Shown here: piece by piece, positions 20,790-50,134 of the stretch
How positions within the stretch are numbered: position 1 is the stretch's first letter
Layout: each line of letters opens with the position of its first letter
Program-made: the position numbers and the translations under genes
NCBI GenBank assembly: GCA_964567775.1
Contig: CAZMPB010000001.1
Span: forward strand, 1-59,161
From: an uncultured Bacteroidales bacterium
GTDB lineage: Bacteria; Bacteroidota; Bacteroidia; Bacteroidales; CAIWKO01
Direction: 5' to 3'
Length of the DNA stretch: 59,161 nt
The notes under the pieces: generated by a model
Databases searched by the model: none
The model's input: the letters and a program-made list of their open reading frames with translations, nothing else
Told to the model about the DNA's origin: nothing

Positions 20790-20877
20790 AATAAAGCCAC
20801 AGCCAAAATACTGATAGTCCATGCCGATCCGGTATGCCTTATCATGACATTGTCATACAACAACAGGTATTAAAATT

Positions 20878-22625: not shown

Positions 22626-22689
22626 ACATGATCGGTGGCTGCCGACAATCTTTCTAAAAGCCAATATAAAATTCAACGCCTGAAAAATA

Positions 22690-23101: not shown

Positions 23102-23408
23102 AATAACAATATTAGAAAAAACGATAGGGTTGCGTATTAGAAGCACCTGAATGCGTGATCAAGGGTTTAATTGTCATCAGTAATTATAATTAACACCTCA
23201 AAAAATGATTTAGCCGAAAAATACCAAATCACTTCTTCATTGAACGAATTAATGTAAATTTGTTCAACCAAATAAACGTATTAAAAAAATACTGGGTAAG
23301 ACCTTCAAAAAATCAAGAATAATTGCTTAAAGTACAAATAATTACAATTTTTATGTATTGGATTACATAAATTTAGCTAAAAAAATGGATTACATCACAT
23401 AATTTATT

Positions 23409-23416
23409 TATATTTG
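23409..23416 (+). promoter_or_regulatory. Candidate -7 box (TAnnTTTG)
   Basis: tatatttgcaaaaaaactgaaATG. The box ends 13 nt before the ATG at 23430. Confidence 0.4.
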
Positions 23417-23429
23417 CAAAAAAACTGAA

Positions 23430-24647: not shown

Positions 24648-24715
24648 AATAAAAATCCTGCAAAACATGCCCTACCCTTGCAAGGGATGAGAAAAAAATT
24701 TAATAATTGATCACC

Positions 24716-30711: not shown

Positions 30712-31719
30712 ATGAGTTTAATCAATTCACTTAGTGAAGTCAACTTAAAACCAGAAAATTTCCCGTTTTTATTTTGGGATAATTGGTTGAATTATGAAGC
30801 AACAGATAACTGTTCGTGCTACTTGTATTATAATGAAAAATACAATGCGGTTGTCCCTTTTAAAGTACATCGTTTAAAATTTTTAAAAAAAGCTGAATAC
30901 ATTTATAAGCCTTTGGATTTCACAGGAAAAGATATAGAGGCAGATACAGAAAAAGATTTCGTTGATTGTTTCCATAAGTTTATAAAAGAAAAAAAAATCT
31001 GTGATGTTGTTTTTCCCCCAAGTCATTGTTGCGTTTTTAAAAGCATACCCAGCAGGGCAATATATTTTGAGATTGGGATTATCGGAATCGATATGATAGG
31101 AACAGCAGAAGATATTTTTGCCAAAATGAACACCACTTACCGCAAACAAATACGCAAGGCTGAAAAGCTGGGAGTAAGCACTCATTTCGGGCCCGAAACT
31201 TTTCCTGATTTCTATAAATTATATGCGGACACACATAGCAGGCAAGGACTGCCGCATTTGACGGCTTCCGACATAAAAAAATTAATGGAAAAAATGCCGG
31301 GGAACATCCTTGTTGGCTTCTCAAAAACGCCAGCCGGCGCCGAGCACAGCAACCTGAGTGTTTACGACAAGGCACAGGCTTATAGTTTTTGGGGCGGTTC
31401 GGCGGCCAGCCCCGTGGTGCCCGGTTCGAACAAAATTCTTATGTGGGGCTCTATAAAAGCCCTGAGAGATTTGGGCGTGAAAAAATACATACTGGGCGGT
31501 TATAGAAATCCCGCCATCAATGATGATAAACATAACGGCATACAGGACTTCAAGATCAGATTCGGTGCTGAAGTTGAAAAAGGATATCATTTTATAAAAA
31601 TTATCAATCCGGCAAGATATTATTTGTTTGTATTTGCACTGAAGATCAAATCAATATTAAAAGGAAAGGAGTACTCCTTTATAAACACCTCCGGGTTAAA
31701 TATCAGAAAGTCAAAATAA
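30712..31719 (+). CDS. FemAB-like / Acetyltransf_6-type (peptidoglycan-bridge aminoacyltransferase family) protein
   Basis: YRKQIRKAEKLGV, YADTHSRQGLP, FWGGSA and KYILGGY...GIQDFKIRFGAE resemble FemAB-family conserved blocks. Confidence 0.6.
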   Translation: MSLINSLSEVNLKPENFPFLFWDNWLNYEATDNCSCYLYYNEKYNAVVPFKVHRLKFLKKAEYIYKPLDFTGKDIEADTEKDFVDCFHKFIKEKKICDVVFPPSHCCVFKSIPSRAIYFEIGIIGIDMIGTAEDIFAKMNTTYRKQIRKAEKLGVSTHFGPETFPDFYKLYADTHSRQGLPHLTASDIKKLMEKMPGNILVGFSKTPAGAEHSNLSVYDKAQAYSFWGGSAASPVVPGSNKILMWGSIKALRDLGVKKYILGGYRNPAINDDKHNGIQDFKIRFGAEVEKGYHFIKIINPARYYLFVFALKIKSILKGKEYSFINTSGLNIRKSK

Positions 31720-31729
31720 ATATTCCCTG

Positions 31730-32971
31730 CTACATTATTGCACAAGACCTGCTTAAAATATTTATCAAATCAAAACCATCCCAAATGATTGAAAAATCAG
31801 TAGTGTGGCCAATGGGGACTATACGATCAATACCGAATGACTTAATAGTTTTCACGAAATCTATCAATTCTGCTTTGCTCAAGCCCCAATATGACAAAGT
31901 TTGATATTTGCGATTGATAATTGGTATAATTTCCGATAATGAAGATGCGTGATATTCAGAAAAATACCCACTGGAACAGCGGTATTCATCAATATTAACC
32001 GGCAAATTTTTTAATTCAACCCGCCAAAGAAGATTGTCTGGTGTTGGTGTTTTTTTTAACCCATTTAACTGCAAGGATTGATTATAAAATGATGTAAGCT
32101 TATCTACTGCTATTACTGGTTGTATTAGATATTTTGCTTTAACTATTTTATATAATTCATCCCAAAATATTTTTTGTGCATTTTCAACATTGGCCTTACT
32201 GCCAAGCCAAATAATCAGATGTGGCGCTGTGCATGCATTTTGGTCAAACAAATAAGTATCATTATAAAACCCGGATGCTACTTTTTCTGGATTTGCTTCA
32301 GATATATAATTGTCGGCATTAATCACACAAAAAGAATATCTGTCGGCAAACGTAATATCAAATGATCTGGCAGGCATGGCATTTTTTCTTATTTCTTCGA
32401 TAGTTGTGTTACCTCCCCATATAATACGAACATCACAAATTGATGAAAAGTAATTTGTCGCCGTGCTCTGACGATCGTATTGAACAAAAAGCAGACGACT
32501 AGTAATTGCTTTGTGAGTTTCTTCCCTGCTTAATTTTTCTATTGCTTCTGTAATTATTTCTACCTGCTCAAATTCTTTTGAGGGTACTCTTACGATATTC
32601 GTATTTCCGGCAAGCAGTCCACACAAAAAGGAATAGGCAAAATTCACCGGAACGTTTGAAGGAGAAATATGAAACACGACACCTCTGCCCAGCCTGATTG
32701 ATTCCTCATCAAAATATTTTTTTTTAAGCTGCAAAATATTGGCCTTTCGGCAAAAAAAGGCAAATGTCGCCACGTCCGGATATTTTTTTATCCTGGGATC
32801 CTTATTCAAAGAAAAAGATAAGGCATTAAGAAATTCTATACATTTATTGTCAAATGGTTCTGCCGGAGGAATACGGATAAGATTATCAGTATTGATTTCC
32901 TTTGGAAACAGTATTTTTATTTTATCAATATTTTTCTCCATAAGTATCGCTGCAGCCCCTGATTTCTGCAT
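31730..32971 (-). CDS. LuxC-family acyl-CoA/acyl-protein reductase (aldehyde-forming)
   Basis: Length and blocks (GRGVVFHISPSNVPVNFAYS, IIWGGN, CTAPHLI) fit the LuxC family. The gene follows a LuxE-like gene and overlaps it. An alternative ATG lies at 32941. Confidence 0.65.
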   Translation of the reverse strand: MQKSGAAAILMEKNIDKIKILFPKEINTDNLIRIPPAEPFDNKCIEFLNALSFSLNKDPRIKKYPDVATFAFFCRKANILQLKKKYFDEESIRLGRGVVFHISPSNVPVNFAYSFLCGLLAGNTNIVRVPSKEFEQVEIITEAIEKLSREETHKAITSRLLFVQYDRQSTATNYFSSICDVRIIWGGNTTIEEIRKNAMPARSFDITFADRYSFCVINADNYISEANPEKVASGFYNDTYLFDQNACTAPHLIIWLGSKANVENAQKIFWDELYKIVKAKYLIQPVIAVDKLTSFYNQSLQLNGLKKTPTPDNLLWRVELKNLPVNIDEYRCSSGYFSEYHASSLSEIIPIINRKYQTLSYWGLSKAELIDFVKTIKSFGIDRIVPIGHTTDFSIIWDGFDLINILSRSCAIM

Positions 32972-34007
32972 TTTTTAATCGTCCTACCACCTTAAAATAT
33001 TTCCCCAGCCTGCCACATGCACAATCATCCTCGCCCAATAAGATTCCTTCATCTTCGGTAATCAACGAATGTCCCGGATAACTTTTTGGTAGTATTGAAA
33101 TAACCTGTATAATTCCAGCTTCTCCAATATTTGCCAACGAAAAATCATGGGGACGCCTAATGAGCGCGTCAGAAAAAACAGGAGCATGCAGATAGCCACA
33201 TTCGCACTCCATAAATATTGAACCTGTTTGCTCCACCATCCCATAATAATCATGCACATTTCTTATGCCACAGACATCATAAAGTTTTTCACGGAACACT
33301 TTGGACGAGACAGATTCACTTTCAAGTTTTTTCCATCCACCTCCGTGAATTAAAACAGCATTAGAGAGGTCAGGCTTTATATTTCTTTTCACTAGTTCGT
33401 TATAAAAGTGTTGATAAATCATGAATGTGAAGCCGAATATAAAAATACGCTTCCCCTTATGCTGCTCGAGAAATACAGATAAATTCTCAAAATCCAGTTC
33501 CATGCTCTCATTCAGGGCATACATCCGCTTTGAGCCAAATATAGAAAAACCCAAAATTCCAGCCCCGCGTGCAGAAAAAAGATTCCTGTTTTTTACCGTA
33601 CTTTCCGAATCCACAATTATCATGGGTATTCTTTGCGAACCAATAAATGAAGAAACAATTCTGGTAAGTGCTTTTGTTTGATTTGATGAAGTTTCCTTGT
33701 CAAGGTATATTTTTGATACGGATTGTCCCGTAGTGCCTGACGATGTCATGGTCTTCACAATATCTTCCTTTTTCACACTGTACATATTGAACATTTTGAA
33801 AAGTCTGACCGGTAAAAAAGGCAGCTCTGAATAATGATATTGTTTCTTTGAATCATATCCGATGGCATCCATCATGTTTTTGTATGATTCACAATGTTCA
33901 TGATGATGTTGCGACAAATAATTGAGGTAAGGACTAAGAAGTTTTTCCTTGTCAATATGATTTAATGAGTATGGCTGAATATCCAGAATTTTCGCTATAT
34001 CCATCAA
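32925..34007 (-). CDS. LuxE-family acyl-protein synthetase
   Basis: MTSSGTTGQSVSKIYLDKETS, LIHGGGWKKL and YGMVEQTG are LuxE-type adenylating-enzyme blocks. Confidence 0.7.
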   Translation of the reverse strand: MMDIAKILDIQPYSLNHIDKEKLLSPYLNYLSQHHHEHCESYKNMMDAIGYDSKKQYHYSELPFLPVRLFKMFNMYSVKKEDIVKTMTSSGTTGQSVSKIYLDKETSSNQTKALTRIVSSFIGSQRIPMIIVDSESTVKNRNLFSARGAGILGFSIFGSKRMYALNESMELDFENLSVFLEQHKGKRIFIFGFTFMIYQHFYNELVKRNIKPDLSNAVLIHGGGWKKLESESVSSKVFREKLYDVCGIRNVHDYYGMVEQTGSIFMECECGYLHAPVFSDALIRRPHDFSLANIGEAGIIQVISILPKSYPGHSLITEDEGILLGEDDCACGRLGKYFKVVGRLKNAEIRGCSDTYGEKY

Positions 34008-35404
34008 ATGTTCAATTTTGCGTAAATAGTCTTTCCTGAAGAATTTTTAGGTATGGCATCAATATGTCTGACAGAAAAAGCCATTTGGTTAATTCCTGTT
34101 TTCCCAGAAATATAATTCCGCGTTTCTGCAAGTCTGTTTTTATCCGTAATATAAATTACCATATGATCATCATGACCAATGCAGGCACAATCTGAGATGA
34201 AATTTTTCAGCAATCGTTCTGTTTCATCCAGATTAACCCTGTTGCCATAAATTTTGATAAACCGTTTTTTTCTTCCAACAATGTAATAGAAATTGTCGCT
34301 ATCTCTTTTTGCTATATCTCCTGTATATAAGATACCTTTATTTTCATCTTCTTTCTTAAGATCATCGCCACATTCGGCATATCCCATTGAAACATTTTTC
34401 CCTTTATACACAAGTTCGCCAATGATTTCAGGTCCTTCAATAGCTGATCCTTTTTCATCAATTAAACTGAATTCACCTCCCGGTATAGCAATACCCATAC
34501 TTCCCAACTTAGACAATGAATACTGATGAGGTAAATAACTCATCCTTGCTGTAGCTTCAGTTTGTCCGTACATTACAAAGAAACGTTTGTTTGCCTGCAT
34601 GCAAAATTCCGAAAATTCTTTATTTAATTCGTTATTCAGTTTTCCACCTGCCTGTGTTAAAGTATTTAAAGACGATAGTTCCATACGAAAAAAACGAAGC
34701 TTCTTTAATATTTCATAGGTATATGGAACACCTGACATAGATGTTGCCTTTTGCGTTTTCAGGAAATTCCAAAACTCTTTTTCCATCAGGGATTTTGAAG
34801 TTAACAGCAGGGTTGCTCCTTTTAAGAAATGACTATTAATAATAGAGAGACCAAATGAATAGCTCATTGGCAAAGTTGTGATGGGACGCTCATTTTCATC
34901 TATTGACAAATATTCTGCAATAGAAGTTGCATTTGCTTCTATATTATCATAACTTAAACGGACAAGTTTAGGGCTACCGGTGCTACCAGAGGTTGTTAAT
35001 AGCAAAGCTAAATCATCATGCACTAGATAATAATTACTCGATTCAAGTTTGACTAGAGAATAATTATGTTTTGAAAATATTATTTGTCCCTTCGAAAATT
35101 CATTAATGCGATCATCAGGCAGCCACAAGTATTCAGGACGATATGTATTTACAAGTCCTTCTAGTAATTCCCTGTCAATGGTTGAATCAAGCATTAAAGG
35201 AACGATCTTATTTGCAATGAACGAAATGTATCCGCACAATGAACCAATCGTATTTTGACATATGCAAAAAACAAGGCAGCGATGTTGGATAGCATTATAA
35301 ATAGAATCGGAAAAAACGTTTATTTCTTTATAAGAAAAGATTCTCCCTATATCTGTTATAACAGCAATTTTATCTTCTTTCGGATGTATATTAAAAGGTA
35401 ACAT
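34004..35404 (-). CDS. AMP-binding (ANL-superfamily) adenylating enzyme / acyl-ACP ligase candidate
   Basis: LLLTTSGSTGSPKLVRLSY (A3), YGQTEA (A5), YTGDIAKRD..FYYIVGRKKRFIKIYGNRVNLDETE (A7/A8) and SSGKTIY (A10). Confidence 0.85.
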   Translation of the reverse strand: MLPFNIHPKEDKIAVITDIGRIFSYKEINVFSDSIYNAIQHRCLVFCICQNTIGSLCGYISFIANKIVPLMLDSTIDRELLEGLVNTYRPEYLWLPDDRINEFSKGQIIFSKHNYSLVKLESSNYYLVHDDLALLLTTSGSTGSPKLVRLSYDNIEANATSIAEYLSIDENERPITTLPMSYSFGLSIINSHFLKGATLLLTSKSLMEKEFWNFLKTQKATSMSGVPYTYEILKKLRFFRMELSSLNTLTQAGGKLNNELNKEFSEFCMQANKRFFVMYGQTEATARMSYLPHQYSLSKLGSMGIAIPGGEFSLIDEKGSAIEGPEIIGELVYKGKNVSMGYAECGDDLKKEDENKGILYTGDIAKRDSDNFYYIVGRKKRFIKIYGNRVNLDETERLLKNFISDCACIGHDDHMVIYITDKNRLAETRNYISGKTGINQMAFSVRHIDAIPKNSSGKTIYAKLNI

Positions 35405-35422
35405 AATGAGCGTTATGCTTTA

Positions 35423-36400
35423 CTATAAAGAGGAATATTTTTGTTCGATGTCGTGGGCAATTTGATCGGGTAATAATCTGTTTTGTCCCAGCAAATAATT
35501 ATAATCGCCCGCGTGACGAAACTGATCAGCTAAACCAAGTCTTAACAATTGCGTGTGTCGTTTTTTAGAACAAAGATGCTCTGCAATTGCCCCCCCCAGG
35601 CCACCAATGATACTATGCTCTTCAACTGAAACGAGCAATTTTGATCGTTCATTTGCATACTCGATGCAATTTGTGTCTAAAGGTTTAATAGTGTGTATGT
35701 TTACAACACAGGCATTTATCCCCTTCGTTTCAAGGATTTTTGAAGCTTCCAGTGAATTATATACCATGGTTCCGGTGGCAAAAATTGTAATATCTCCTTC
35801 GTCCGTAATTGTAATTGCCTTGCCTATTTCAAAGTTATAATCTTCTTTATATACCATTGGGTTGTTCAGCCCACCTGTCAATCGGATATAAACCGGTCCA
35901 TTAATTTGTGCGGCGGCTAATGCTACTTTTACCGATTCAGTGGCGTCGGCTGGTGATAAAATCGTTATATTAGGTATAGCCCGGACAATTGCTATGTCCT
36001 CTAAAGAATAATGAGTATTGCCTGAATACGTCATGACCAGCCCTGCAGCCGTACCAATAATTTTCACATTAGATTTCATATATCCCAGATAATGGCGCAA
36101 TTGTTCACAGCTTCGCATACTAATAAAAGTTGCATATGTAGTTGCAAACACAATTTTTCCCTCTTGAGCTAATCCCGCACTAATACCAAGCATATTTTGC
36201 TCAGCAATACCAACATTTAAAAAATTTTCAGGATGCCTGTTTATAAATCTTTCCAATCCGGAAAGATAAGCAAGATCAGCAGTCAAAATCATAGCGTTCT
36301 GAAACTGTTCAACGACTTCAAAAACGGCAACCCCGAAGAAAGCTCCCCGTTGTCCTAGCTTTGACCATGTTCTGAAATTTATTGAATTAAATGTAAGCAT
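35423..36400 (-). CDS. Transketolase, C-terminal (pyrimidine-binding) subunit
   Basis: GIAEQNMLGISAGLA, TYATFISMR, NTHYSLEDIAIVRAIPN and VEEHSIIGGLG. Confidence 0.85.
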   Translation of the reverse strand: MLTFNSINFRTWSKLGQRGAFFGVAVFEVVEQFQNAMILTADLAYLSGLERFINRHPENFLNVGIAEQNMLGISAGLAQEGKIVFATTYATFISMRSCEQLRHYLGYMKSNVKIIGTAAGLVMTYSGNTHYSLEDIAIVRAIPNITILSPADATESVKVALAAAQINGPVYIRLTGGLNNPMVYKEDYNFEIGKAITITDEGDITIFATGTMVYNSLEASKILETKGINACVVNIHTIKPLDTNCIEYANERSKLLVSVEEHSIIGGLGGAIAEHLCSKKRHTQLLRLGLADQFRHAGDYNYLLGQNRLLPDQIAHDIEQKYSSL

Positions 36401-36409
36401 GACTTTAGA

Positions 36410-37237
36410 TTATATTTTAATTAACTGTTCAGACATGGCAATGTCATATTGCTCTTGTGTGAGAATTGAAAAATGCCACTCTTTTTTATTTTCCATAAAT
36501 GACACTCCTTTACCTTTTACAGTATTGGCAACTATTGCATTAGGTTTGTCGGAGGATTTGTTTTGAAATGCATCATATAGGTGACAAACATTGTGTCCGT
36601 CTACTTCGTTGGCATAGAATCCGAATGCTTCAAGTTTTGTTTTCAGGCTACCCATATTCATTATTGTTGTGACATTTCCGTCATACTGTAATTTATTGTG
36701 GTCAATAATTACCGTAAGATTATCTAGGTGAAAATGCGATGCCGACATAAGGGCTTCCCATACAATACCTTCATTACACTCTCCGTCACCAATAATCACA
36801 TATGTCCGATAAGAACGATTATTCAACTTGCCGGCCAGGGCAACGCCAATTGCATAGCTTAGACCCATACCTAAACTGCCTCCGGAAAATTCTATCCCAC
36901 GCGAAACGTTACGTGTTGCGTGGCCATGCAATGCGGAGCCATTTGTTTCAAAACTTAATATGTCTTGATCACTCAAGAATCCCAATTCGTTCAAGACCGC
37001 ATAATAGGCAAGCACACAATGTCCCTTACTAACAATAATACGATCGCGGTTCTCATCAGTCGGATTATGTGAATTGATGGAGACAATTTCTCCATATAAA
37101 GTAGCAAACACTTCAACCAAAGATAATGCGCCTCCAAGATGCGATCCGGTTTTCCCAGTATCAAGAGCCATTTTCAATGCTTTTTTACGCAATTTTGCTG
37201 CAAGTGCAATAATCTGAAATTCTGTTTCTTTGTTCAT
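36410..37237 (-). CDS. Transketolase, N-terminal (thiamine-diphosphate-binding) subunit
   Basis: GSHLGGALSLVEV, SKGHCVLAYYAVL and the ThDP motif IIGDGECNEGIVWEA...NL.VIIDHN. Confidence 0.85.
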   Translation of the reverse strand: MNKETEFQIIALAAKLRKKALKMALDTGKTGSHLGGALSLVEVFATLYGEIVSINSHNPTDENRDRIIVSKGHCVLAYYAVLNELGFLSDQDILSFETNGSALHGHATRNVSRGIEFSGGSLGMGLSYAIGVALAGKLNNRSYRTYVIIGDGECNEGIVWEALMSASHFHLDNLTVIIDHNKLQYDGNVTTIMNMGSLKTKLEAFGFYANEVDGHNVCHLYDAFQNKSSDKPNAIVANTVKGKGVSFMENKKEWHFSILTQEQYDIAMSEQLIKI

Positions 37238-37251
37238 TTTAAAATCCTTAA

Positions 37252-38007
37252 TTACATGCCACCGTCAACCCTTATAACTTGTCCATTGACAAACGACGCC
37301 AAATCAGAGGCAAGGAACAGAGCCATATTAGCAATTTCTTCAGGTTTTGCTAATCTTTTCATAGCACTATCACCTACCAATATTTCTTTTGCTTTTTTCT
37401 CCATTTGGGTAGCCATTTCTGTGGCAGTTAATCCCGGAGCAATGGCATTTATCCTGATATTGTATGGTGCGAATTCCATTGCTAACGTTTTTGTTGCATA
37501 TATCAGTGCCGCCTTGCTGGATCCATATGCAGAGTAACCCGGATAGCCATCCATTCCCACTACTGATGCCATATTAACTATGCTGCCACATTTTTGTCTC
37601 ATCATTAGTCTGGAAACTAATTGTATTATCATGAGTTGGGAGAAAAAATTTATCTCAAACACCTCTTTAATTGTTTTCAAAGTAGTCATTTGTAAAAAGC
37701 CACCATGGGCAACACCAGCATTATTTACCAATATATCGATTCTACACCTTTCATCAATGAGTTTTTTAAGTGATTCTTTTATCTCAATTTCATTTGCTAA
37801 ATCAAAATATATTGGCCGAACAGTTACGCCATATTTTTCAGAGGTGTCGTTGAGAAAAGCTTGATGTTCTTTTGTCTCTTTTCTTGCACATGCTATAACA
37901 GATGCGCCATTCAAGGCAAAAGTTTCAACAATGGTTTTCCCAATCCCCCGATTGCTGCCAGTTATAAGAGCTGTTTTATCAGTCAATATATTATTAGATG
38001 ACAACAT
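37252..38007 (-). CDS. SDR-family oxidoreductase (FabG-like ketoreductase)
   Basis: ALITGSNRGIGKTI (TGxxxGxG), NNAG, and the catalytic YSAYGSSKAA (Y-x3-K). Confidence 0.85.
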   Translation of the reverse strand: MLSSNNILTDKTALITGSNRGIGKTIVETFALNGASVIACARKETKEHQAFLNDTSEKYGVTVRPIYFDLANEIEIKESLKKLIDERCRIDILVNNAGVAHGGFLQMTTLKTIKEVFEINFFSQLMIIQLVSRLMMRQKCGSIVNMASVVGMDGYPGYSAYGSSKAALIYATKTLAMEFAPYNIRINAIAPGLTATEMATQMEKKAKEILVGDSAMKRLAKPEEIANMALFLASDLASFVNGQVIRVDGGM

Positions 38008-38230
38008 GGTATTTCTTTAAAATTTCTTTTCCTTTTTCGTACGATGAAAAATCAATAATATCATCCGTATCCATCATTATATCAAAAGCTTCTTCCAGGG
38101 AAGCAATCAAGCCCATGTGTCCTACCGAATCCCATGCGGGAATTGATTGGTAGGTCAAAGTGGATATTTGTGAATCGTTTGCTTGAAAATTTGTAAAAAA
38201 TACTTCGTTATATTTATCTAAATTTGTCAT
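37994..38230 (-). CDS. Acyl carrier protein (78 aa)
   Basis: AWDSVGHMGLI carries the DS(V/L) phosphopantetheinylation motif. It is the first gene of the minus-strand operon. Confidence 0.75.
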   Translation of the reverse strand: MTNLDKYNEVFFTNFQANDSQISTLTYQSIPAWDSVGHMGLIASLEEAFDIMMDTDDIIDFSSYEKGKEILKKYHVVI

Positions 38231-38426
38231 TGAATATTAAACTTTAATGATAATATTAATTAACAAAAGTATTAAAAAATGGGATAAACTTGTTCCTTTA
38301 TCTAAAAATTATTGGATCAATTCTCAACCAAATAAAAACATAATGCTAATTTGTAAAACAAGAAACATCCAGTATTATTATAAGATGTTTTTTAAAAAAT
38401 AAAAGAACTAAATATTTTTTTATAAA

Positions 38427-39503
38427 ATGAGTATAAAAATCATTCAAATAGATTTATCGACTGAAGATTTAAGTTTAATCGATTTTCTCAATATAAATGT
38501 CAATGATAATATTCGTCATCATACGTTTAAATGGCAATATACCGAAGCTCCACATGATGTTATATTCTTTATGGTAAAAGATGACGATAAGATTATCTCA
38601 ACAGCCTCCTTCATACCCTATAGTTTGTTGTTTGATAAGGAATTTTTTTTAACTGCAAAAGGAGAAAGCTTCTTCCTTGATCCAGATTATCGTTCTACCC
38701 CAATTTTTCCAGCCGTTTATAAGAAAGGATTAATTGAATGTGAAAAAAAAAATATGTCAGTGGTTTGGGGGTTTTCTCCAATATATAAATTTTTTTTAGG
38801 GAAAACGCTTTTCCATGTTTATGGGGATATCATGTTTGATTTTAGAGCTATAGTGGGAATGAAGAAGCTATCAGATTTTAGTTTTGACAGCCAGATAATT
38901 CTAAGATACCCCAAACATTTGGCAAGTTTTTTAATTTCAGGTTTTTTACATTGGAAGTCGAAAATGATATCAAGGTACAAATCCAAAATAAATGAATATT
39001 CAGTAAAAGAAAAATTACCAGACACTTCTCTAATAAATGATTTGTTTGCCAAAATTCCAGGTGTTGAGAATATTGTCAGATTAGATATGGATAATTCATT
39101 TTTGGAGTGGCGAGTATATAATAATCCCAATCTAATTTATAAGACTCATTTCTTTTTTAAAAATAATGTTTTGGAGGGTTTTTATTTTTATAGTATAAAT
39201 GAAAAAAAACTTTGCGTTCAATTAGTTGAATTTGTTTTTATCAATAATAATACAGGAAATGTAATGGCCTGTCATTTAATAAACAAAATGAAAAAAGAAA
39301 AAGCCTCATTTTTGGAATATTTCGGGAATATAAAAAACAAAGTGAATTTGATGGCTTTTTCTATACTACAAAAACATGTTTTTGGAAAAATATATTTGAA
39401 CAAAGGAATGGATTTTATTCAAAAAATCACACCAGAAACAAAAAATTTTCCAATTGAAAATTGGTATATAAATGGATTATGGACACAGGGATATGACCGG
39501 TAA
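38427..39503 (+). CDS. GNAT-like protein, long form (358 aa), paralog group member 2 with a degenerate motif A
   Basis: The layout matches 25720, 46947 and 50135 (GESFFLDPDYRSTPIFPAVYKKG). The position of the usual R-x-x-G-x-(G/A) reads RSTPIF. Very AT-rich gene. Confidence 0.4.
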   Translation: MSIKIIQIDLSTEDLSLIDFLNINVNDNIRHHTFKWQYTEAPHDVIFFMVKDDDKIISTASFIPYSLLFDKEFFLTAKGESFFLDPDYRSTPIFPAVYKKGLIECEKKNMSVVWGFSPIYKFFLGKTLFHVYGDIMFDFRAIVGMKKLSDFSFDSQIILRYPKHLASFLISGFLHWKSKMISRYKSKINEYSVKEKLPDTSLINDLFAKIPGVENIVRLDMDNSFLEWRVYNNPNLIYKTHFFFKNNVLEGFYFYSINEKKLCVQLVEFVFINNNTGNVMACHLINKMKKEKASFLEYFGNIKNKVNLMAFSILQKHVFGKIYLNKGMDFIQKITPETKNFPIENWYINGLWTQGYDR

Positions 39504-39619: not shown

Positions 39620-41284
39620 TTAATCAGAATATATTTTTATTTGTAAATTAATTTTATCCAGGTTTTTTCTCTCCATGATACCATAGCCTTCAAATTGATA
39701 TGCTTTAAAGGTTAGAAAGTGTGGTTTTACTGCGATTAAGTGATAATTTTTTTCCGGAGTATAAGGATGGTATTCACTAAAGGGGTAAGGGCAATAATAT
39801 GGAAAAAAATTTAGAATAATTATATTATTAGGCAATAGATTTTTTCTTTCAAAGCCTCGGGAATGGTATATTACCTCTTCTATTTGTGAATCTAGATCGT
39901 CAAATTCAAATACGCTTTTTATTTTTTTCAAATCATATTTTTTACTTAAATCCCATACAATGTCCCGTGGATAGCCTAACGATTTATAGGTTAAAAAATT
40001 AACACTAAATTGAATTATAAATATTATTGATATTAAAAATAAAATTAAATTCCTTTTCCTAGTTATTTTATCTAATAAAAATTTTATTGAAAATATAGCG
40101 AAGATGATAAAAAACAAAATATATTGATGTACTAATCTTCCATAGAAAACCATTTTGTGAAAAAAATAACCTGAAGACGCATAAGCTAAAAAAATTACTA
40201 TTACTAAAGAGCCTAATAATAATAAGTCTGAATTATTTTTTAAAAAATTATTGTTTAGTATGGGTTTATTTAATATTTTTTCTTTTATATAAGGCATAAT
40301 TTGATATATTAAAATAATACAAAATAGTACTAACCCTATAATAATAATTACGCCATTAATATGCTCAACACTATAAAGGTACTTTATTATAAATGAAAAT
40401 GATTCCTCAAATGAGCCATTGTCTATCGTTTTGGATAGCCATAATGAATCTGATATTAATGATCTCCCACCCAATCGCGATGCCACTTCAAAAAGAAAAA
40501 GGCAAATAATGCTGCCCAGAAAATAAAAAAAGGCGTATTGTGTTTTTTTTAAAATATTTGCTTTTGATAAGCAATTAAAAAAGAAAAAAAGAAAACAAAC
40601 AAGAAACAATGTAAAATAACCAGGATAAACCAAAAATCCAAAAAATGAAATCAAGCCTAAAAGCAGAGATTTAAATGAAGTCAGGCTTTCATTTTTCTCA
40701 TATTTAAATGTTTTAAACAACACATAAAGCAAGATTAACAAACTTGCATCATAAGGATATGCGTGCCTCAGATAAATATATGAATTAGTTAATGTACAAT
40801 ATATTAGAACACATAAAAGAGAAAGAAGGGTATCTTTTAGTAAAAATTTTGCTATTTTATAAAAAAGTAAAAGAATAAAACAATAAATGATGAAATTATG
40901 AAGGAATAATGGATAATTGTTTTTTGTTTCATAATAATAAAGTTTAAAGATGCAGGCAGTTACATATTGAATTGCATTTGGCAATAAATTGACTATTGCA
41001 CTGGCCGGCCGGCCTTTTGTTAAAAAAATCGAATTAATAGCAGAATCTATTTTTAATTCTGAAGCATATTTCAATGCTGTTCCGGATGTCGTATAAAGGT
41101 TGTCATCATCGTTAGCCTTGAAGCCAGGGCCTATTAATCCAAGTTTAATAATGGTAATTATTATAATACTTGCAACTAGCAAATATTTTAATGGTTCTTG
41201 CTGAAATTTATTTATCGCATTAGATAAGACAAATCTAATCTTATTTGAGAAGGTTTTTTTATAGTTAATATTTTGGAATACCAT
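39620..41284 (-). CDS. Polytopic membrane protein with C-terminal soluble domain (GT-C-like candidate), tandem paralog 1
   Basis: 554 aa. It has an acidic FKANDDDNLY loop after TM1, more than 10 TM helices and a C-terminal ~130 aa hydrophilic domain. Highly similar to 41417-43084. Confidence 0.45.
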   Translation of the reverse strand: MVFQNINYKKTFSNKIRFVLSNAINKFQQEPLKYLLVASIIIITIIKLGLIGPGFKANDDDNLYTTSGTALKYASELKIDSAINSIFLTKGRPASAIVNLLPNAIQYVTACIFKLYYYETKNNYPLFLHNFIIYCFILLLFYKIAKFLLKDTLLSLLCVLIYCTLTNSYIYLRHAYPYDASLLILLYVLFKTFKYEKNESLTSFKSLLLGLISFFGFLVYPGYFTLFLVCFLFFFFNCLSKANILKKTQYAFFYFLGSIICLFLFEVASRLGGRSLISDSLWLSKTIDNGSFEESFSFIIKYLYSVEHINGVIIIIGLVLFCIILIYQIMPYIKEKILNKPILNNNFLKNNSDLLLLGSLVIVIFLAYASSGYFFHKMVFYGRLVHQYILFFIIFAIFSIKFLLDKITRKRNLILFLISIIFIIQFSVNFLTYKSLGYPRDIVWDLSKKYDLKKIKSVFEFDDLDSQIEEVIYHSRGFERKNLLPNNIIILNFFPYYCPYPFSEYHPYTPEKNYHLIAVKPHFLTFKAYQFEGYGIMERKNLDKINLQIKIYSD

Positions 41285-41416
41285 ATCGTTTTTGTTTTAA
41301 AATTTCAGAAAAATAATTTAATAAAATAAATGGCCTATATTAATAGGTATTATAGAATGAAATATTTTTATTTAACTTTCAAAGACCTGTTTAGCTCTGG
41401 CTTGTCCAGGATAGAA

Positions 41417-43084
41417 TTAATCAGAATATATTTTTATTTGTAAATTAATTTTTTCCAGGTTTTTTCTCTCCATGATACCATAGCCTTCAAATTGATATGC
41501 TTTAAAGGTTAGAAAGTGTGGTTTTACTGCGATTAAGTGATAATTTTTTTCCGGAGTATAAGGATGGTATTCACTAAAGTCGTATGGACAATTATATTCA
41601 AAACAGTTTAGAATAATTATATTATTAGGTAATAGATTTTTCCTTTCAAAGTAACGGGAATGATACATTACCGCTTCAACTTGTGAATATTGATCGTCAA
41701 ATTCAAATACGCTTTTTATTTTTTTTAAATCATATTTTTTACTTAAATCCCAAACAATATCCCGTGGATAACCTAACGATTTGTAGGTTGAAAAATTAAC
41801 ACTAAATTGAATAATAAATAATATTGATATTAAAAATAAAATTAAATTCTTTTTCTTGGTTATTTTATCTAATAAATAATTTATAGAAAATACAGCAAAG
41901 ATGATTAAAAACAAAATATATTGATGTACTAATCTTCCATAGAAAACCATTTTATGAAAAAAATAACCACTGGATGCAAAAGCTAAAAAAATAACTATTA
42001 TTAAAGATCCCAACAATAATAAGTCTGAATTAATTCTTATAAATTTATTTTGGGGAATAGGTTTATCCGAAAATTTATTATTATTTATATAAAATCTAAT
42101 ATTATATAATAGAATAAAACAAAAGAGTGCTAACCCTATGATAATAATTATACCATTAATATGCTCAACACTAAAAAGGTACTTTATTATAAATGAAAAT
42201 GATTCCTCAAATGAGCCATTGTCTATAGTATTGGATAGGGTTAATGCATCCGATATTAATGATCTCCCACCCAATCGCGATGCCACTTCAAAAAGGAAAA
42301 GGCAAATAATGCTGCCCAGAAAATAAAAAAAGGCGTATTGTGTTTTTTTAAAAATATTTGCTTTTGACAAGCAATTAAAAAAGAAAAAAAGAAAGCAAAC
42401 AAGAAACAATGTAAAATAACCAGGATAAACCAAAAATCCAAAAAATGAAATCAAGCCTAAAAGCAGAGATTTAAATGAAGTCAGGCTTTCATTTTTCTCA
42501 TATTTAAATGTTTTAAACAACACATAAAGCAAGATTAACAAACTTGCATCATAAGGATATGCGTGCCTCAGATAAATATATGAATTAGTTAATGTACAAT
42601 ATATTAGAACACATAAAAGAGAAAGAAGGGTATCTTTTAGTAAAAATTTTGCTATTTTATAAAAAAGTATAAGAATGAAACAATAAATGATGAAATTATA
42701 AATAAATAATGGATAATTGTTTTTTGTTTCATAATAATAAAGATTAAAGATACGGGCAGTAACATATTGAATGGCATTTGGCACTAAATTAATTATTGAA
42801 CTGGCTGGTCTGCCTTTTGTTAAAAAAATCGAATTAATGGCAGAATCTATTTTAAATTCGGATATATATTTTAATGCTGTACCAGACGTTGTATAAAGAT
42901 TTTCATCATCGTTATGTTTGAAACCAGGCCCCATTAATCCAAGTTTAATAATGGTAATTATTATAATACTTGCGAAAATCAAATGTTTTAATGGTTGTTG
43001 CCTGAACTTTTTAAGAGCATTGGATAAGGTAAGTTTAATTTTATTTGAGAAAGTTTTTTTATGGTTAATAATTGGGGATGACAT
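41417..43084 (-). CDS. Polytopic membrane protein with C-terminal soluble domain (GT-C-like candidate), tandem paralog 2
   Basis: 555 aa with an FKHNDDENLY loop. It has long stretches of nucleotide identity with paralog 1. Confidence 0.45.
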   Translation of the reverse strand: MSSPIINHKKTFSNKIKLTLSNALKKFRQQPLKHLIFASIIIITIIKLGLMGPGFKHNDDENLYTTSGTALKYISEFKIDSAINSIFLTKGRPASSIINLVPNAIQYVTARIFNLYYYETKNNYPLFIYNFIIYCFILILFYKIAKFLLKDTLLSLLCVLIYCTLTNSYIYLRHAYPYDASLLILLYVLFKTFKYEKNESLTSFKSLLLGLISFFGFLVYPGYFTLFLVCFLFFFFNCLSKANIFKKTQYAFFYFLGSIICLFLFEVASRLGGRSLISDALTLSNTIDNGSFEESFSFIIKYLFSVEHINGIIIIIGLALFCFILLYNIRFYINNNKFSDKPIPQNKFIRINSDLLLLGSLIIVIFLAFASSGYFFHKMVFYGRLVHQYILFLIIFAVFSINYLLDKITKKKNLILFLISILFIIQFSVNFSTYKSLGYPRDIVWDLSKKYDLKKIKSVFEFDDQYSQVEAVMYHSRYFERKNLLPNNIIILNCFEYNCPYDFSEYHPYTPEKNYHLIAVKPHFLTFKAYQFEGYGIMERKNLEKINLQIKIYSD

Positions 43085-43184: not shown

Positions 43185-44252
43185 TTAACAAATGTCTTCA
43201 TAAAATTTCGTCTTAATATTATTATCATTCCACCATTTATAAATTTTCTCCCCGGAAGTAAGCCAAGCTCCTTTTGAAGAACAATATTCCAAAATTTTGA
43301 TATATAAATTTAAATTATTTTCAGTGAAATAGGTATTATGCCACAACAGATTAAAAACGCCACCCACACTCTCGGTCTTATCAATAAAATCCTTCACATA
43401 TTTCCACGAATTTTCAGAATCAAGTTGCATGTATCTGTCCAATGTGCAATCCATAATAATTAATGGAATGGCAAGAATATCAATATACTCATTTTTCGCT
43501 GAATTATATGGAGTAAATGGATGACATAACCCATTTCTAAATCCGGAAACATCATTATATCCATAGGATGCATCATATTTAAAACCGGCTTTAGACTGAA
43601 TTTCCCATGTTTCAGGATTTTTAAATTTGAGAAAATGGTTTCTGATACCAATTACTTTGCTGTTAATGGTGTTTTCTAGTTTTTGTTTTTCCTGTGAAAG
43701 TTTTTTCAGATCATTATAGGCAAGGTGTCCCGCGTGTAAACCAATTTCCGAATCATTTTCTTTTATTTTTCTTAACACATCTTTTACCTCGTCAATGTTA
43801 TAATTAAAATCCTTTTCGCCCTTATCAAGAGCCAGGAAAAAGAAAGTCGAATTAGCCTGGTATCTTTTTTCTATCTCCAAAATGTTTTGAATATTAAAAT
43901 ATGGGCTATTTCTTTTATTAAAAAGATTTGATAAGGTTGATGAGAATTTATTTAAACTGCCCCTTGAAATACCCTTGACGGCATTCTTTAATATTTCATT
44001 GTTCGGAACAAAAAGCTGATCAATATCATGGGTAAGACAAACGGCAAATTTTTTGTTTCCCGGATATTTAACATTTAACTTATTTTTTTTAAATAAATAT
44101 ACCGAAACAACTGGATTATCAATTTTTAGTGGCGATAAGGCAGCAGTGTTTCTTTGATGAATATCCGTAATTTCCTGATCGTATTCATCTTGTCTGGTAA
44201 ATACTTTTTTTAAATCAAAGAGGGATTCCATTCTTTTAAAATATTTATACAA
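43185..44252 (-). CDS. Polysaccharide-deacetylase-like (CE4-superfamily) protein
   Basis: FAVCLTHDIDQL, IGLHAGHLAY and NLLWHNTYF resemble the Asp/His metal-site blocks of divergent CE4 proteins. Confidence 0.5.
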   Translation of the reverse strand: MYKYFKRMESLFDLKKVFTRQDEYDQEITDIHQRNTAALSPLKIDNPVVSVYLFKKNKLNVKYPGNKKFAVCLTHDIDQLFVPNNEILKNAVKGISRGSLNKFSSTLSNLFNKRNSPYFNIQNILEIEKRYQANSTFFFLALDKGEKDFNYNIDEVKDVLRKIKENDSEIGLHAGHLAYNDLKKLSQEKQKLENTINSKVIGIRNHFLKFKNPETWEIQSKAGFKYDASYGYNDVSGFRNGLCHPFTPYNSAKNEYIDILAIPLIIMDCTLDRYMQLDSENSWKYVKDFIDKTESVGGVFNLLWHNTYFTENNLNLYIKILEYCSSKGAWLTSGEKIYKWWNDNNIKTKFYEDIC

Positions 44253-46942: not shown

Positions 46943-46946
46943 CTTA

Positions 46947-50116: not shown

Positions 50117-50134
50117 TCAGATAATTCAATAGTA

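Follow-up and report, generated by a model that had tools for sequence, protein, structure and literature searches.

The question raised by positions 31730-38230 of the 59,161-nt stretch of Bacteroidales DNA analysed here (the window) is what product would call for a two-subunit transketolase (TK), a small ACP and homologues of LuxE and LuxC in one operon of a glycan locus. A preliminary description of this DNA had proposed a seven-gene minus-strand operon, and all seven co-directional ORFs are present at the following coordinates, listed with the flanking features discussed below.

37994-38230, minus strand: ACP, 78 aa
37252-38007, minus strand: SDR, 251 aa
36410-37237, minus strand: TKN, first subunit of the split TK, 275 aa
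35423-36400, minus strand: TKC, second subunit of the split TK, 325 aa
34004-35404, minus strand: ANL ligase, 466 aa
32925-34007, minus strand: LuxE-like protein, 360 aa (359 aa if started at the ATG at 34004)
31730-32971, minus strand: LuxC-like protein, 413 aa (403 aa if started at the ATG at 32941)
38231-38426, no strand: divergent intergenic region, 196 nt, 82.7% A+T
30712..31719, plus strand: FemAB-family protein, 335 aa, convergent with LuxC
38427..39503, plus strand: conserved divergent neighbour, 358 aa

The operon and its proteins

The operon is real; each of its seven proteins is intact and retains its catalytic residues. ACP and SDR overlap by 14 nt, and gaps of 14, 9 and 18 nt separate SDR from TKN, TKN from TKC and TKC from ANL. 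ANL and LuxE overlap by 1 nt (ATG at 34004) or 4 nt (TTG at 34007), while LuxE and LuxC overlap by 47 nt if LuxC begins at its first ATG (32971) or by 17 nt if it begins at 32941, the 403-aa start chosen by independent gene calls on identical contigs. The earlier statement that all junctions measure 18 nt or less thus holds for the LuxC start at 32941 and fails for that at 32971. The divergent region is as AT-rich as first described and is the likely site of the operon promoter, but sigma-70 sites within it were no commoner than in shuffled sequence (31 vs 31.2). A single TAnnTTTG of the Bacteroidota type occurs there (38271-38264, minus strand), 34 nt before the start of ACP, and could be a chance occurrence given a window-wide rate of 1.2 per kb.

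Profile searches and alignments upheld every family assignment made at the outset (ACP, SDR, split TK, ANL, LuxE and LuxC). Searched alone, the ACP had no Pfam match at E <= 0.01 and only weak matches to a putative ACP in the PDB (2LML, E 0.003) and to PF00550 (E 0.041). A profile built from 25 cassette ACP homologues matched 36 solved ACPs, that of E. coli included (best 5.5e-7), and PF00550 matched 24 of the 25. Residues W33-D34-S35 are invariant in this set and the DS motif is present in 86/87 homologues; Ser35, in the motif AWDSVGHM, is the predicted phosphopantetheine site. The ANL protein matches AMP-binding (E 3e-38) and has as its top NCBIfam match TIGR03098, an exosortase-A-associated ligase, with a score under the cut-off of that family. 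Its P-loop TSGSTGSPK and catalytic Lys458 are kept across loci, its gene adjoins that of the ACP in most loci, and its neighbours in the PDB comprise generic ligases for short acids together with acyl-ACP ligases. We propose that it is an acid:ACP ligase.

The LuxE-like protein (PF04443, E 1e-55) aligns over its full length to Photobacterium phosphoreum LuxE (7XC6_E) with TSSGTTG as its conserved P-loop and Cys351 (RGCSD) as the conserved C-terminal acyl-Cys. It is the best-conserved cassette protein, at 45-76% identity across phyla, and has more than 8000 homologues in the database. The LuxC-like protein (PF05893, E 3.5e-29) aligns to LuxC (7XC6_A) with its catalytic Cys within FDQNACTA, and the Cys and Asn are kept in 105/105 homologues. 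Membership of unrelated families is ruled out by the profile matches and conserved acyl-cysteines, and alignment to the solved LuxC-LuxE complex further backs the original calls. As in the LuxCDE fatty-acid reductase of luminous bacteria, the two genes are adjacent and overlapping. However, LuxD and LuxAB are missing from the cassette, its LuxC is ~70 residues shorter, identity is low, scores fall far under the NCBIfam lux equivalog cut-offs (70 vs 550 bits for LuxE and 50 vs 750 bits for LuxC), and the context is one of glycan synthesis.

TKN is the ThDP/PP-domain subunit (Transketolase_N, E 2e-37) and TKC the pyrimidine-binding and C-domain subunit (Transket_pyr, E 4e-29; Transketolase_C, E 1.5e-22). 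Their closest solved structures are the chains of the Carboxydothermus hydrogenoformans split TK (6YAK for TKN and 6YAJ for TKC, E 2e-61 each), which shares the two-gene architecture and is the best structural template. TKN retains H33, H73, H106, D151, N181 and H255, equivalent to E. coli His26, His66, His100, Asp155, Asn185 and His261, and the great majority of cassette-linked N-subunits share the catalytic His residues. TKC retains R18 (Arg358), S47 (Ser385), E67 (Glu411) and H130 (His473) and carries A118 for His461, S126 for Asp469 and G177 for Arg520. In E. coli TK, His461, Asp469 and Arg520 recognize the sugar phosphate and the acceptor C2 hydroxyl. Their equivalents are absent from all 69 cassette-linked TKCs (0/69); the ThDP-activating Glu411 equivalent is kept in 69/69, that of His473 in 65/69 and that of Arg358 in 47/69. 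In contrast, His, Asp and Arg occupy the three positions in the aligned C. hydrogenoformans enzyme, and unlinked split TKs from the same scan have the canonical signature R-T-E-H-E-D-H-R. Both subunits also score far under the NCBIfam TK equivalog cut-offs. These alignments indicate that the substrate channel of TKC is remodelled, and the loss of His461 and Arg520 should weaken binding of a ketose-phosphate donor.

The SDR is FabG-like (adh_short_C2, E 1e-60) and lies under every NCBIfam equivalog cut-off. It clusters with all SDRs encoded directly upstream of TKN, apart from the SDR clade of TK-less cassettes, and we propose that it is a ketone reductase acting on the TK product.

A widespread cassette and its transketolase module

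A LuxE-centred survey gave 77 genome loci, spread over about ten phyla, in which ACP-(SDR)-ANL-LuxE-LuxC keeps its order. Of these, 18/77 also have a split TK, with an adjacent SDR in 17 of the 18 (none in L012). The TK module occupies four different positions among cassette loci, which include sites upstream of ACP, between ACP and ANL, and downstream of LuxC; in L074, L075, L105, L116, L122 and L147, SDR-TKN-TKC abuts a LuxE-LuxC pair with no intervening ANL. In some loci the TK-clade SDR or the LuxE-LuxC pair is doubled. SDR-TKN-TKC forms a portable module, added on to the cassette, whose SDR makes up a clade of its own.

A TK-centred survey yielded 16 loci with a non-canonical TKC and at least 5 kb on either side. 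LuxE/LuxC are present in 12 of the 16 and ACP or ACP plus ANL in two more; the well-flanked loci L106 and L128 have TK, SDR and ACP, with ANL also in L128, and lack LuxE/LuxC. None of the ten loci with a canonical-signature TK carries any cassette gene, which argues that the TK here is not a housekeeping enzyme; the lack of the three canonical substrate-recognition residues throughout the cassette-linked clade also speaks against a housekeeping copy.

The preliminary description had implied that the gene combination is unique. Its five-gene core is, however, known from the flagellin glycosylation islands of Aeromonas group II and Enterobacteriaceae, where ACP - FabG - AMP-ligase - LuxE - LuxC is annotated as "fatty acid biosynthesis/liposugar", and a 2015 gene list for Dickeya zeae EC1 includes, without analysis, a set with TK (W909_12275-12315: LuxC, LuxE, FadD-like, TktA, TktB, two FabG, ACP and acetyltransferase). 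Families and order in the flagellin-island cassettes are identical to those of the window operon, and the D. zeae set, arranged as in L016 and L002, differs solely in having one SDR more. The flagellin islands are flagellar loci, often with pseudaminic-acid genes, whereas the window holds a Bacteroidota-type polysaccharide locus, and proteobacterial cassettes that lack TK have an SDR from a different clade than the window SDR. No glycan substituent biochemically tied to the seven-gene set was found in the literature searched, in line with the earlier statement. The operon is a TK-bearing variant of the widespread ACP-ANL-LuxE-LuxC glycan-acylation cassette.

The surrounding glycan locus

Cassette loci lie mostly beside nonulosonic-acid or amino-sugar genes. 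The recurrent neighbours (DegT, NeuB, PseB-like, CMP-sugar transferase, and PglD-like or GNAT acetyltransferases) are those of amino-sugar and nonulosonic-acid pathways. The window encodes GT2, GT1/GT4 and GT61 glycosyltransferases, a DegT aminotransferase, a PglD-like acetyltransferase, WbqC, PIG-L, three polysaccharide deacetylases, several GNATs and one FemAB-like protein; the scan of window ORFs turned up no NeuB gene.

The FemAB-like protein (PF02388, E 5e-9), whose gene position is shared by L158, L160 and L161 (syntenic loci), is a candidate acyl-ACP:amino-sugar N-acyltransferase. Its gene was not a recurrent cassette neighbour in other phyla in the locus survey. Its top NCBIfam match is the XrtA/PEP-CTERM FemAB family TIGR03019; TIGR03098, the top match of the ANL protein, is named for the same system. 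The divergent neighbour at 38427..39503 has no Pfam or NCBIfam match and three homologues only, one in the same cassette-adjacent position (L160/L161) and another with a faint Acetyltransf_1 match. Its AF2 model (pLDDT 47) is too low in confidence to use, and the faint match hints that it may possibly be a GNAT-like transferase.

A proposed pathway and its alternatives

Taken together, the data suggest that the operon builds a short polyhydroxylated acyl group, delivered by the dedicated ACP for amino-sugar N-acylation in the local polysaccharide. LuxE would adenylate a small di-acid at one carboxylate and form an acyl-Cys thioester, which LuxC, using NAD(P)H, would reduce to give a semialdehyde. 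The split TK would transfer its ThDP-bound dihydroxyethyl (C2 ketol) unit onto this semialdehyde; its pocket no longer has the residues for phosphate and the C2 hydroxyl, yet its Arg358 equivalent could hold a carboxylate. The TK-clade SDR would reduce the new ketone, producing a 3-deoxy-aldonic-acid-like polyol acid whose remaining carboxylate the ANL would load onto holo-ACP. A neighbouring FemAB-like or GNAT-like enzyme would then acylate a free amine provided by the DegT aminotransferase or a de-N-acetylase of the locus. We infer all of these chemical steps from the families, catalytic residues and gene linkage shown above, and put the scheme forward tentatively as one that may well be right.

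Two cited systems resemble parts of this scheme. In azinomycin biosynthesis the split TK AziC5/C6 adds two carbons to N-acetylglutamate semialdehyde, after carboxylate activation and reduction by AziC3/C4. As in the related vazabitide pathway, a two-subunit tailoring TK thus places C2 on a non-phosphorylated, carboxylate-bearing aldehyde, and with this precedent the sequence aldehyde, C2 ketol, SDR reduction is the better supported of the two roles first suggested for the operon. Azinomycin differs in using kinase activation and an ArgC-like reductase rather than LuxE/LuxC, in transaminating the ketol rather than reducing it, and in being a natural product rather than a glycan.

The closest cited analogue of the ACP-ANL-LuxE-LuxC cassette is the RfbK/L/M/N/O set of Vibrio cholerae O1. 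The set has no TK and is credited with the N-acyl group that perosamine bears in the O1 antigen, a 3-deoxy-L-glycero-tetronate (2,4-dihydroxybutanoyl). It comprises an ACP (RfbK), an ANL (RfbL, credited with activation of 2,4-dihydroxybutanoate onto either CoA or RfbK as the carrier), RfbN with a LuxE domain assigned to tetronate synthesis, a reductase and an acyltransferase. Set in a glycan locus and with a short hydroxylated N-acyl group as its proposed product, this pathway is itself a sequence-based proposal. For this set Morona et al. in 1995 are said to have assigned the alcohol-forming step to an iron-type alcohol dehydrogenase, in place of the SDR here, and the transfer reportedly to a hexapeptide acetyltransferase, in place of a FemAB/GNAT-like enzyme.

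Some observations stand against the proposed scheme in its simple form. The acyltransferase is not conserved as a neighbour across phyla, and the scheme leaves the doubled TK-clade SDRs and LuxE-LuxC pairs unexplained. L106 and L128 imply that the TK module can work without a LuxC-made aldehyde. The same two loci favour a reverse order, in which TK and SDR first make a hydroxy acid (for example, glyoxylate plus a C2 ketol giving dehydro-tetronate and then erythronate or threonate) before LuxE/LuxC act on it and/or ANL charges the ACP with it, as in cassettes without TK. SDR-TKN-TKC is self-contained, varies in position relative to ACP, ANL and LuxC, and retains an Arg358 equivalent that might hold a small keto- or aldo-acid by its carboxylate. 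We nevertheless think this order unlikely, as the module usually lies beside LuxE/LuxC (the 12/16 above), the sole cited tailoring split-TK precedent acts after carboxylate reduction, and a role for LuxE/LuxC following the TK step is left unexplained.

The published "liposugar" annotation in Aeromonas and Enterobacteriaceae would have the cassette activate and reduce a long-chain fatty acid and the glycan bear a lipid, and the canonical substrates of LuxE and LuxC are indeed C14 acids. This is improbable for an operon from which ketosynthase, acyltransferase, dehydratase and enoyl reductase are all absent, whose Lux scores are so far under the equivalog cut-offs, and whose TK would have no role in fatty-acid chemistry; the cited V. 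cholerae account also assigns the homologous set to a C4 dihydroxy acid. Aeromonas piscicola AH-3, with a TK-less cassette, makes a 376.14-Da pseudaminic-acid derivative and an unexplained 102-Da unit, which is not a lipid mass. Replacing one acetyl of Pse5Ac7Ac by C4H6O3 gives 316.127 - 42.011 + 102.032 = 376.148, so the observed mass agrees with such a swap as arithmetic rather than as a structure, and to that extent favours the scheme proposed above.

ThDP enzymes are known to add two-carbon branches to sugars, as in YerE/YerF (yersiniose) and the two-component E1-like enzymes of branched-sugar antibiotics. A ThDP enzyme and reductase pair fits this pattern, and 4-keto-sugar and amination genes (PseB-like, DegT) are frequent neighbours, so the TK could branch an NDP-4-keto sugar that the SDR then reduces, with ACP, ANL, LuxE and LuxC producing another, separate substituent. 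We consider this quite improbable, since the module is set between ACP and ANL with gaps of 9-18 nt and in the TK-centred scan almost never occurs without the cassette, though 4-keto-sugar pathways are common elsewhere.

The second role first suggested, a glycolyl- or hydroxyacyl-ACP, is weakened. Here the two-component TK would move C2 from a ketose phosphate to form glycolyl-S-ACP for transfer to an amino sugar. A two-component TK-like enzyme and a small ACP share an operon here as in QncN, QncL and QncM (quinocarcin) and SclQ1-4 (scleric acid), and ACP directly follows TKC in L014, L018, L087, L106 and L128. The quinocarcin-type system, however, needs a lipoyl-attachment and acyltransferase (E2-like) part, the C-terminus of QncL or SclQ4, and has no ANL, LuxE, LuxC or SDR. 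No lipoyl/E2 domain was found in TKC (325 aa, Transket_pyr and Transketolase_C only), the window ORFs scanned, annotated representatives of the recurrent neighbours, L106 or L128. With the phosphate-binding residues for the donor lost and no role left for ANL, LuxE and LuxC, we judge this route very improbable. That an ordinary pentose-phosphate TK lies in the locus by accident is barely credible despite the strong TK-domain scores and the match to 6YAK/6YAJ, given the 0/69 retention beside canonical unlinked split TKs, the sub-cut-off scores of both subunits, and operon junctions of 9-18 nt in an arrangement conserved across phyla.

Under the preferred scheme, the extra TK and reductase probably lengthen the acyl group by two carbons. 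With malate as the starter, the operon in the window would add an acyl increment of C6H10O5 (162.05 Da), and a TK-less cassette one of C4H6O3 (102.03 Da).

Gene content and catalytic residues of the operon

The preliminary description had placed seven minus-strand genes in one operon at 31730-38230, and this was confirmed by the open reading frames, their junctions and their Pfam assignments.

30712-31719, plus strand: FemAB-like gene, convergent with LuxC
31730-38230, minus strand: operon encoding, in order, an acyl carrier protein (ACP), a FabG-like reductase (SDR), the N- and C-terminal subunits of a split transketolase (TKN and TKC), an AMP-binding adenylating ligase (ANL), LuxE and LuxC
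38231-38426: divergent intergenic region, 82.7% A+T
38427-39503, plus strand: gene for a 358-aa protein, divergent from the ACP gene

The seven co-directional reading frames are separated by short gaps or overlaps, the first five junctions being, in order, a 14-nt overlap, a 14-nt gap, a 9-nt gap, an 18-nt gap and a 1-nt overlap. LuxE and LuxC overlap by 17 nt with a LuxC start at 32941, the choice of independent gene calls on identical contigs, or by 47 nt with the first ATG at 32971. One Bacteroidota-type TAnnTTTG motif lies upstream of the ACP gene; a sigma-70 promoter and terminator scan of the operon returned as many promoters as shuffled sequences and is uninformative for a genome of Bacteroidota type.

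Pfam searches identified SDR, Transketolase_N, Transket_pyr plus Transketolase_C, AMP-binding, LuxE (E = 1e-55) and LuxC (E = 3.5e-29) domains. None of these proteins reached an NCBIfam equivalog cut-off (LuxE scored 70 bits against a cut-off of 550 and LuxC 50 against 750), indicating that no curated functional family covers them. The 78-aa product of the first gene had no significant match alone, but a profile built from 25 of its cassette homologues matched 36 solved ACPs (best E = 5.5e-7); PF00550 matched 24 of the 25 homologues, and Trp33-Asp34-Ser35 was invariant.

The LuxE-like protein aligned end to end with Photobacterium phosphoreum LuxE (7XC6_E), with the P-loop and C-terminal acyl-cysteine kept, and the LuxC-like protein aligned with 7XC6_A, with the catalytic cysteine kept. 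These cysteines, the ACP serine and the ANL P-loop and catalytic lysine are present in the window proteins and conserved across about 100 homologues. The operon shares LuxC and LuxE homologues bearing acyl-cysteine residues with the LuxCDE fatty-acid reductase, but neither a LuxD acyl-transferase nor a LuxAB luciferase was found in the operon or its neighbours. Solved structures matching the ANL were generic and gave no substrate call, including luciferases, malonyl-, oxalyl-, succinylbenzoate- and 4-hydroxybutyrate-CoA ligases, and beta-aminoacyl-ACP ligases.

Active site and linkage of the split transketolase

The closest solved structure to the transketolase (TK) is the split enzyme of Carboxydothermus hydrogenoformans (E = 2e-61 per subunit). 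According to established work on TK, and in E. coli numbering, Glu411 activates the cofactor, His26, His66, His100, His261 and His473 are catalytic or donor-binding, Arg358, Ser385, His461 and Arg520 bind the substrate phosphate, and Asp469 reads the acceptor C2-hydroxyl. Split TKs unlinked to the cassette, carried through the same scan as an internal control, showed the full canonical pattern R-T-E-H-E-D-H-R. The window TKN contains a ThDP/Mg motif, GDGE (D151, equivalent to Asp155) with N181 (Asn185), together with H33, H73, H106 and H255, equivalent to His26, His66, His100 and His261, and TKC keeps E67 (Glu411) and H130 (His473). Given these retained residues, ThDP chemistry for a dihydroxyethyl donor looks intact. 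The phosphate-binding residues, whose presence or absence the preliminary description had proposed as a check, were divided: R18 (Arg358) and S47 (Ser385) are kept, and His461 and Arg520 are lost, replaced by Ala118 and Gly177. Ser126 stands in place of Asp469.

The same pattern holds across 69 cassette-linked TKCs. Glu411 is kept in 69/69, His473 in 65/69 and Arg358 in 47/69, whereas equivalents of His461, Asp469 and Arg520 are kept in 0/69; His461 and Arg520 are kept in the unlinked split TKs. The Asp469 position is occupied by Leu, Ser or Phe in most of the linked clade. The stretch of the channel used for sugar-phosphate binding and for reading the acceptor C2-hydroxyl has thus been rebuilt.

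Whether the TK is a housekeeping pentose-phosphate enzyme, which would have undercut the preliminary reading, was judged on this one contig by active site and linkage. A TK-centred metagenome scan yielded 80 loci. Among the 16 with a non-canonical TK and at least 5 kb of sequence on each side, LuxE/LuxC genes were present at 12, and two others of the 16 had ACP or ACP plus ANL only. No cassette gene was found near any of ten TKs with the canonical signature. Together with the loss of His461, Asp469 and Arg520 in every linked TKC, this excludes a housekeeping role for the TK.

Among 77 loci recovered in a LuxE-centred genome scan, 18 contained a split TK, with an adjacent SDR in 17 (the exception being L012). 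The SDR-TKN-TKC module occupied four positions: between ACP and ANL (Bacteroidota, Pseudescherichia, Oscillospiraceae), upstream of ACP (Clostridium, Gastranaerophilales), downstream of LuxC (Duganella, Rhodoferax, Kofleriaceae), or fused to a second LuxE-LuxC pair (Lachnospiraceae). Some loci carried two TK-clade SDRs or two LuxE-LuxC pairs. Clustering of 106 SDRs placed the window protein in a TK-associated clade, apart from the SDRs of TK-less proteobacterial cassettes. The operon is a member of a TK-bearing variant of a known, putative glycan-acylation cassette; new here are a distinct TK clade with a remodelled acceptor pocket, the SDR clade dedicated to it, and the strict association of this TK clade with the cassette in six or more phyla.

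Several accessory genes were observed beside the module. A family of about 242 aa without a Pfam match, 'c16', occurred in 11 TK-bearing loci, in no TK-less LuxE locus, and in a twelfth locus that is a short contig without LuxE (L003, L004, L006, L014, L018, L021, L078, L079, L087, L105, L118 and L124; e.g. L087:7693-8421). It lies directly upstream of ACP/SDR or between ANL and LuxE and may act as the dedicated transferase of the TK variant or catalyse a further step in it. Its profile gave only a marginal 11-bit match among the window ORFs, at 13706-14152, and so no clear counterpart. A Gluconate_2-dh3-like subunit precedes the module in L017, L083, L084 (a short contig), L089, L093 and L100, with an ORF of about 530-555 aa beside it in L017, L089, L093 and L100, and a metallo-beta-lactamase-fold protein lies between TKC and ANL in L021, L088, L118, L123 and L124. 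Both accessories would fit sugar-acid and hydroxyacyl-thioester chemistry.

Cassette distribution, glycan context and neighbouring genes

Database relatives of the LuxE-like protein number more than 8000, and the best 120 of them are 68-100% identical. The 77 loci span Bacteroidota, Bacillota, Pseudomonadota, Campylobacterota, Nitrospirota, Myxococcota, Desulfobacterota, Actinomycetota, Planctomycetota and Melainabacteria, and tblastn with the window proteins recovered the order ACP-(SDR)-ANL-LuxE-LuxC in most of them. The nearest relatives came from Paludibacter and Bacteroidaceae MAGs; they and a T9SS CHU_C protein are the basis for placing the contig in Bacteroidota. For each of the window proteins, percent identity is the same or almost the same in the loci L003 (a Bacteroidota MAG) and L004 (Smithella sp. 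SCADC), with 83% for TKC in each, despite their different assigned phyla, which points to a recent horizontal transfer or a mis-binned contig.

The uniqueness implied in the preliminary description is not supported: forms of the cassette had been listed earlier in Aeromonas, Enterobacteriaceae and Dickeya. Aeromonas group II flagellin glycosylation islands contain, in 98 strains, orf1 (ACP), orf2 (FabG), orf3 (AMP-ligase), luxE and luxC, and Enterobacteriaceae islands share this five-gene core; both accounts guessed the function as "fatty acid synthesis/liposugar". The Dickeya zeae EC1 genome paper described a TK-bearing set (LuxC, LuxE, FadD, TktA, TktB, two FabG, ACP and an acetyltransferase) as an insertion in the flagellar cluster and judged it unrelated to flagella. 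Literature searches combining TK with LuxE/LuxC, O-antigen clusters or pseudaminic acid gave nothing else of relevance, and none of the papers found ties a transketolase to such glycan tailoring. The Shewanella oneidensis sfmABCDE genes were considered as the same cassette and rejected, as the genes differ (a PseI-like protein, an IlvB-like ThDP enzyme, FabG, a methyltransferase and an ATP-grasp protein); they offer only a loose parallel of a ThDP enzyme and an SDR in flagellin-glycan tailoring.

The 59-kb window is a glycan locus, with many glycosyltransferases, a DegT aminotransferase, a PglD-like acetyltransferase, WbqC, PIG-L, three polysaccharide deacetylases, several GNATs and the FemAB-like protein, and within it ACP, ANL, LuxE-like and LuxC-like genes form one co-directional block. 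Neighbouring families were counted over 157 loci, and the most frequent ones indicate that the cassette belongs to amino-sugar and nonulosonic-acid glycan pathways.

Table. Most frequent neighbour families over 157 loci
DegT aminotransferases: 56
NeuB: 34
PseB-like dehydratases: 29
PglD-like acetyltransferases: 26
FabA-like dehydratases: 23
CMP-sugar transferases: 18
GNATs: 16

The identity of the acyltransferase is uncertain. The FemAB-like and 358-aa genes keep their positions in a syntenic Bacteroidales locus, and neither was found to recur in other phyla among the survey loci. The best NCBIfam matches of the ANL and the FemAB-like protein are both named for the XrtA/PEP-CTERM system. An AF2 model of the 358-aa protein, from a three-sequence alignment, had a mean pLDDT of 47. 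Other features of the window are as follows.

118-3498: 1126-aa protein ending in a CHU_C signal for type IX secretion (T9SS), in support of a Bacteroidota origin
8513-9568 and 14149-14850: FabH-like ketosynthase III and WbqC-family protein
13080-13718: PIG-L de-N-acetylase
19515-20789 and 23430-24647: AAA_14/DUF4143-type ATPase genes
20878-22398, minus strand: unassigned 506-aa ORF in mid-locus, flanked by the two ATPase genes
24707-25720, 47950-48834 and, weakly, 43185-44252: polysaccharide deacetylases
39620-41284 and 41417-43084, minus strand: tandem hydrophobic paralogues of 554/555 aa, 87% identical, without Pfam matches
49022-50116, 50135-51124 and 51111-52352, plus strand: radical SAM protein, Acetyltransf_9 GNAT, and PaaK-like adenylating enzyme with AMP-binding_C_2
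56922-57629, minus strand: AbiEii-type nucleotidyltransferase toxin
57622-58194, minus strand: upstream 190-aa ORF overlapping the toxin gene

FabH-like genes recur beside SDR-TKN-TKC in three surveyed loci (L018, L106 and L118), hinting at a further ACP-dependent acyl route. The genes at 49022-52352, whose synteny is kept in loci L160 and L161, form a putative second acyl-activation module. The tandem paralogues could be polymerase- or glycosyltransferase-like membrane proteins; their stretch (39620-43084) has 25-28% GC against 36-40% in its neighbours, and since they are missing from the otherwise syntenic L160 and L161, they look like a recent insertion and duplication. Two of the deacetylases adjoin GNAT-like genes of about 310-340 aa (24707-26664 and 46935-48834), which suggests that the locus repeatedly removes acetyl groups and puts other acyl groups in their place. 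The genes at 19515-24647 look like insertions outside glycan synthesis, and those at 56922-58194 are probably an AbiE toxin-antitoxin pair at the locus edge.

Proposed pathway, alternatives and predicted products

From the protein families, catalytic residues, linkage statistics and altered TK pocket, we infer the following chemistry as the scheme that fits best. LuxE and LuxC would turn a small di-acid into its semialdehyde by reducing one of the carboxylates, the TK would add a C2 ketol to it, and the TK-clade SDR would reduce the resulting ketone. The ANL would then load the remaining carboxylate onto the ACP, from which a neighbouring acyltransferase would N-acylate an amino sugar. This develops the first of two roles suggested in the preliminary description (aldehyde formation, C2 ketol extension, SDR reduction), which is plausible. 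An aldehyde-extending split TK of the AziC5/C6 type, known from natural-product pathways, would be genetically coupled to the reduction of a carboxylate to an aldehyde and act on a non-phosphorylated acceptor; in the cassette, the linkage statistics show a coupling of the TK to LuxE/LuxC, and its phosphate site is lost.

The scheme draws on precedent in Vibrio cholerae, where a C4 dihydroxy-acyl group is attributed to a homologous set without TK: RfbN, which has a LuxE domain, is assigned to the O1-antigen tetronate pathway, and RfbL is described as attaching activated 2,4-dihydroxybutanoate to CoA or to the carrier RfbK. In Aeromonas piscicola AH-3, a strain with a TK-less cassette, a 376.14-Da derivative of pseudaminic acid and an unexplained unit of 102 Da have been reported. 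Replacing one acetyl of Pse5Ac7Ac with dihydroxybutanoyl (C4H6O3, 102.032) gives 376.148, and these masses may be read as a hint towards the scheme. The V. cholerae and Aeromonas papers lend only indirect support to a cassette product that would be a short hydroxy-acyl N-substituent of an amino sugar. With the same starter, the TK product of the window operon would be C6H10O5 (162.05), isobaric with hexose, and TK-bearing and TK-less products are predicted to differ by C2H4O2 (+60.02 Da).

The order of steps could also be reversed, with TK and SDR making the acid first, as would be consistent with two well-flanked loci that have TK, SDR and ACP (one also ANL) without LuxE/LuxC. A glycolyl-ACP route, the second role suggested in the preliminary description, is weakened. 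Quinocarcin-type systems (QncN/L/M, SclQ1-4) likewise pair a two-component ThDP enzyme with a dedicated ACP, but their glycolicacyl-ACP route requires a lipoyl-attachment and an E2-type acyltransferase domain. No lipoyl/2-oxoacid-dehydrogenase acyltransferase was found in the scanned window ORFs, in ten neighbour representatives or in loci L106 and L128, and TKC contains only Transket_pyr and Transketolase_C. Sugar C-branching, the role of YerE-like enzymes, is disfavoured because the TK module is hardly ever present apart from the cassette. The "liposugar" reading, in which the cassette activates and reduces a fatty acid, has no supporting gene content in the operon.

Returning to ketol extension of a semialdehyde, we tentatively raise the possibility that cassette-linked split TKs are a distinct class, carboxylate-directed and not phosphate-directed, that extends a LuxC-made acid-semialdehyde by a C2 ketol, and that many bacteria in at least six phyla would then N-acylate surface amino sugars and nonulosonic acids with sugar-acid-like groups, such as 3-deoxyaldonoyl. 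If so, transketolases would gain their first assigned role in glycan tailoring, the mass difference between TK-bearing and TK-less strains would be testable, and glycan mass spectra may have been misinterpreted, as such acyl groups have the mass of a hexose, pentose or deoxyhexose residue. Addition of two carbons in one variant would widen the known reaction scope of TK to acceptors that bear a carboxylate and no phosphate, a point of interest for biocatalysis.

The ACP-ANL-LuxE-LuxC cassette is among the most widespread modules without an assigned role in bacterial surface-glycan loci, with hosts among gut Bacteroidales, clostridia, plant and fish pathogens and environmental bacteria. In the literature it is annotated as "fatty acid synthesis". 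Should it make short polyhydroxy-acyl decorations instead, many genome annotations would need correcting, and an explanation might be at hand for mass increments on flagellin and capsule glycans that have lacked one. Decorations of this kind influence antigenicity and recognition by phages or the immune system.
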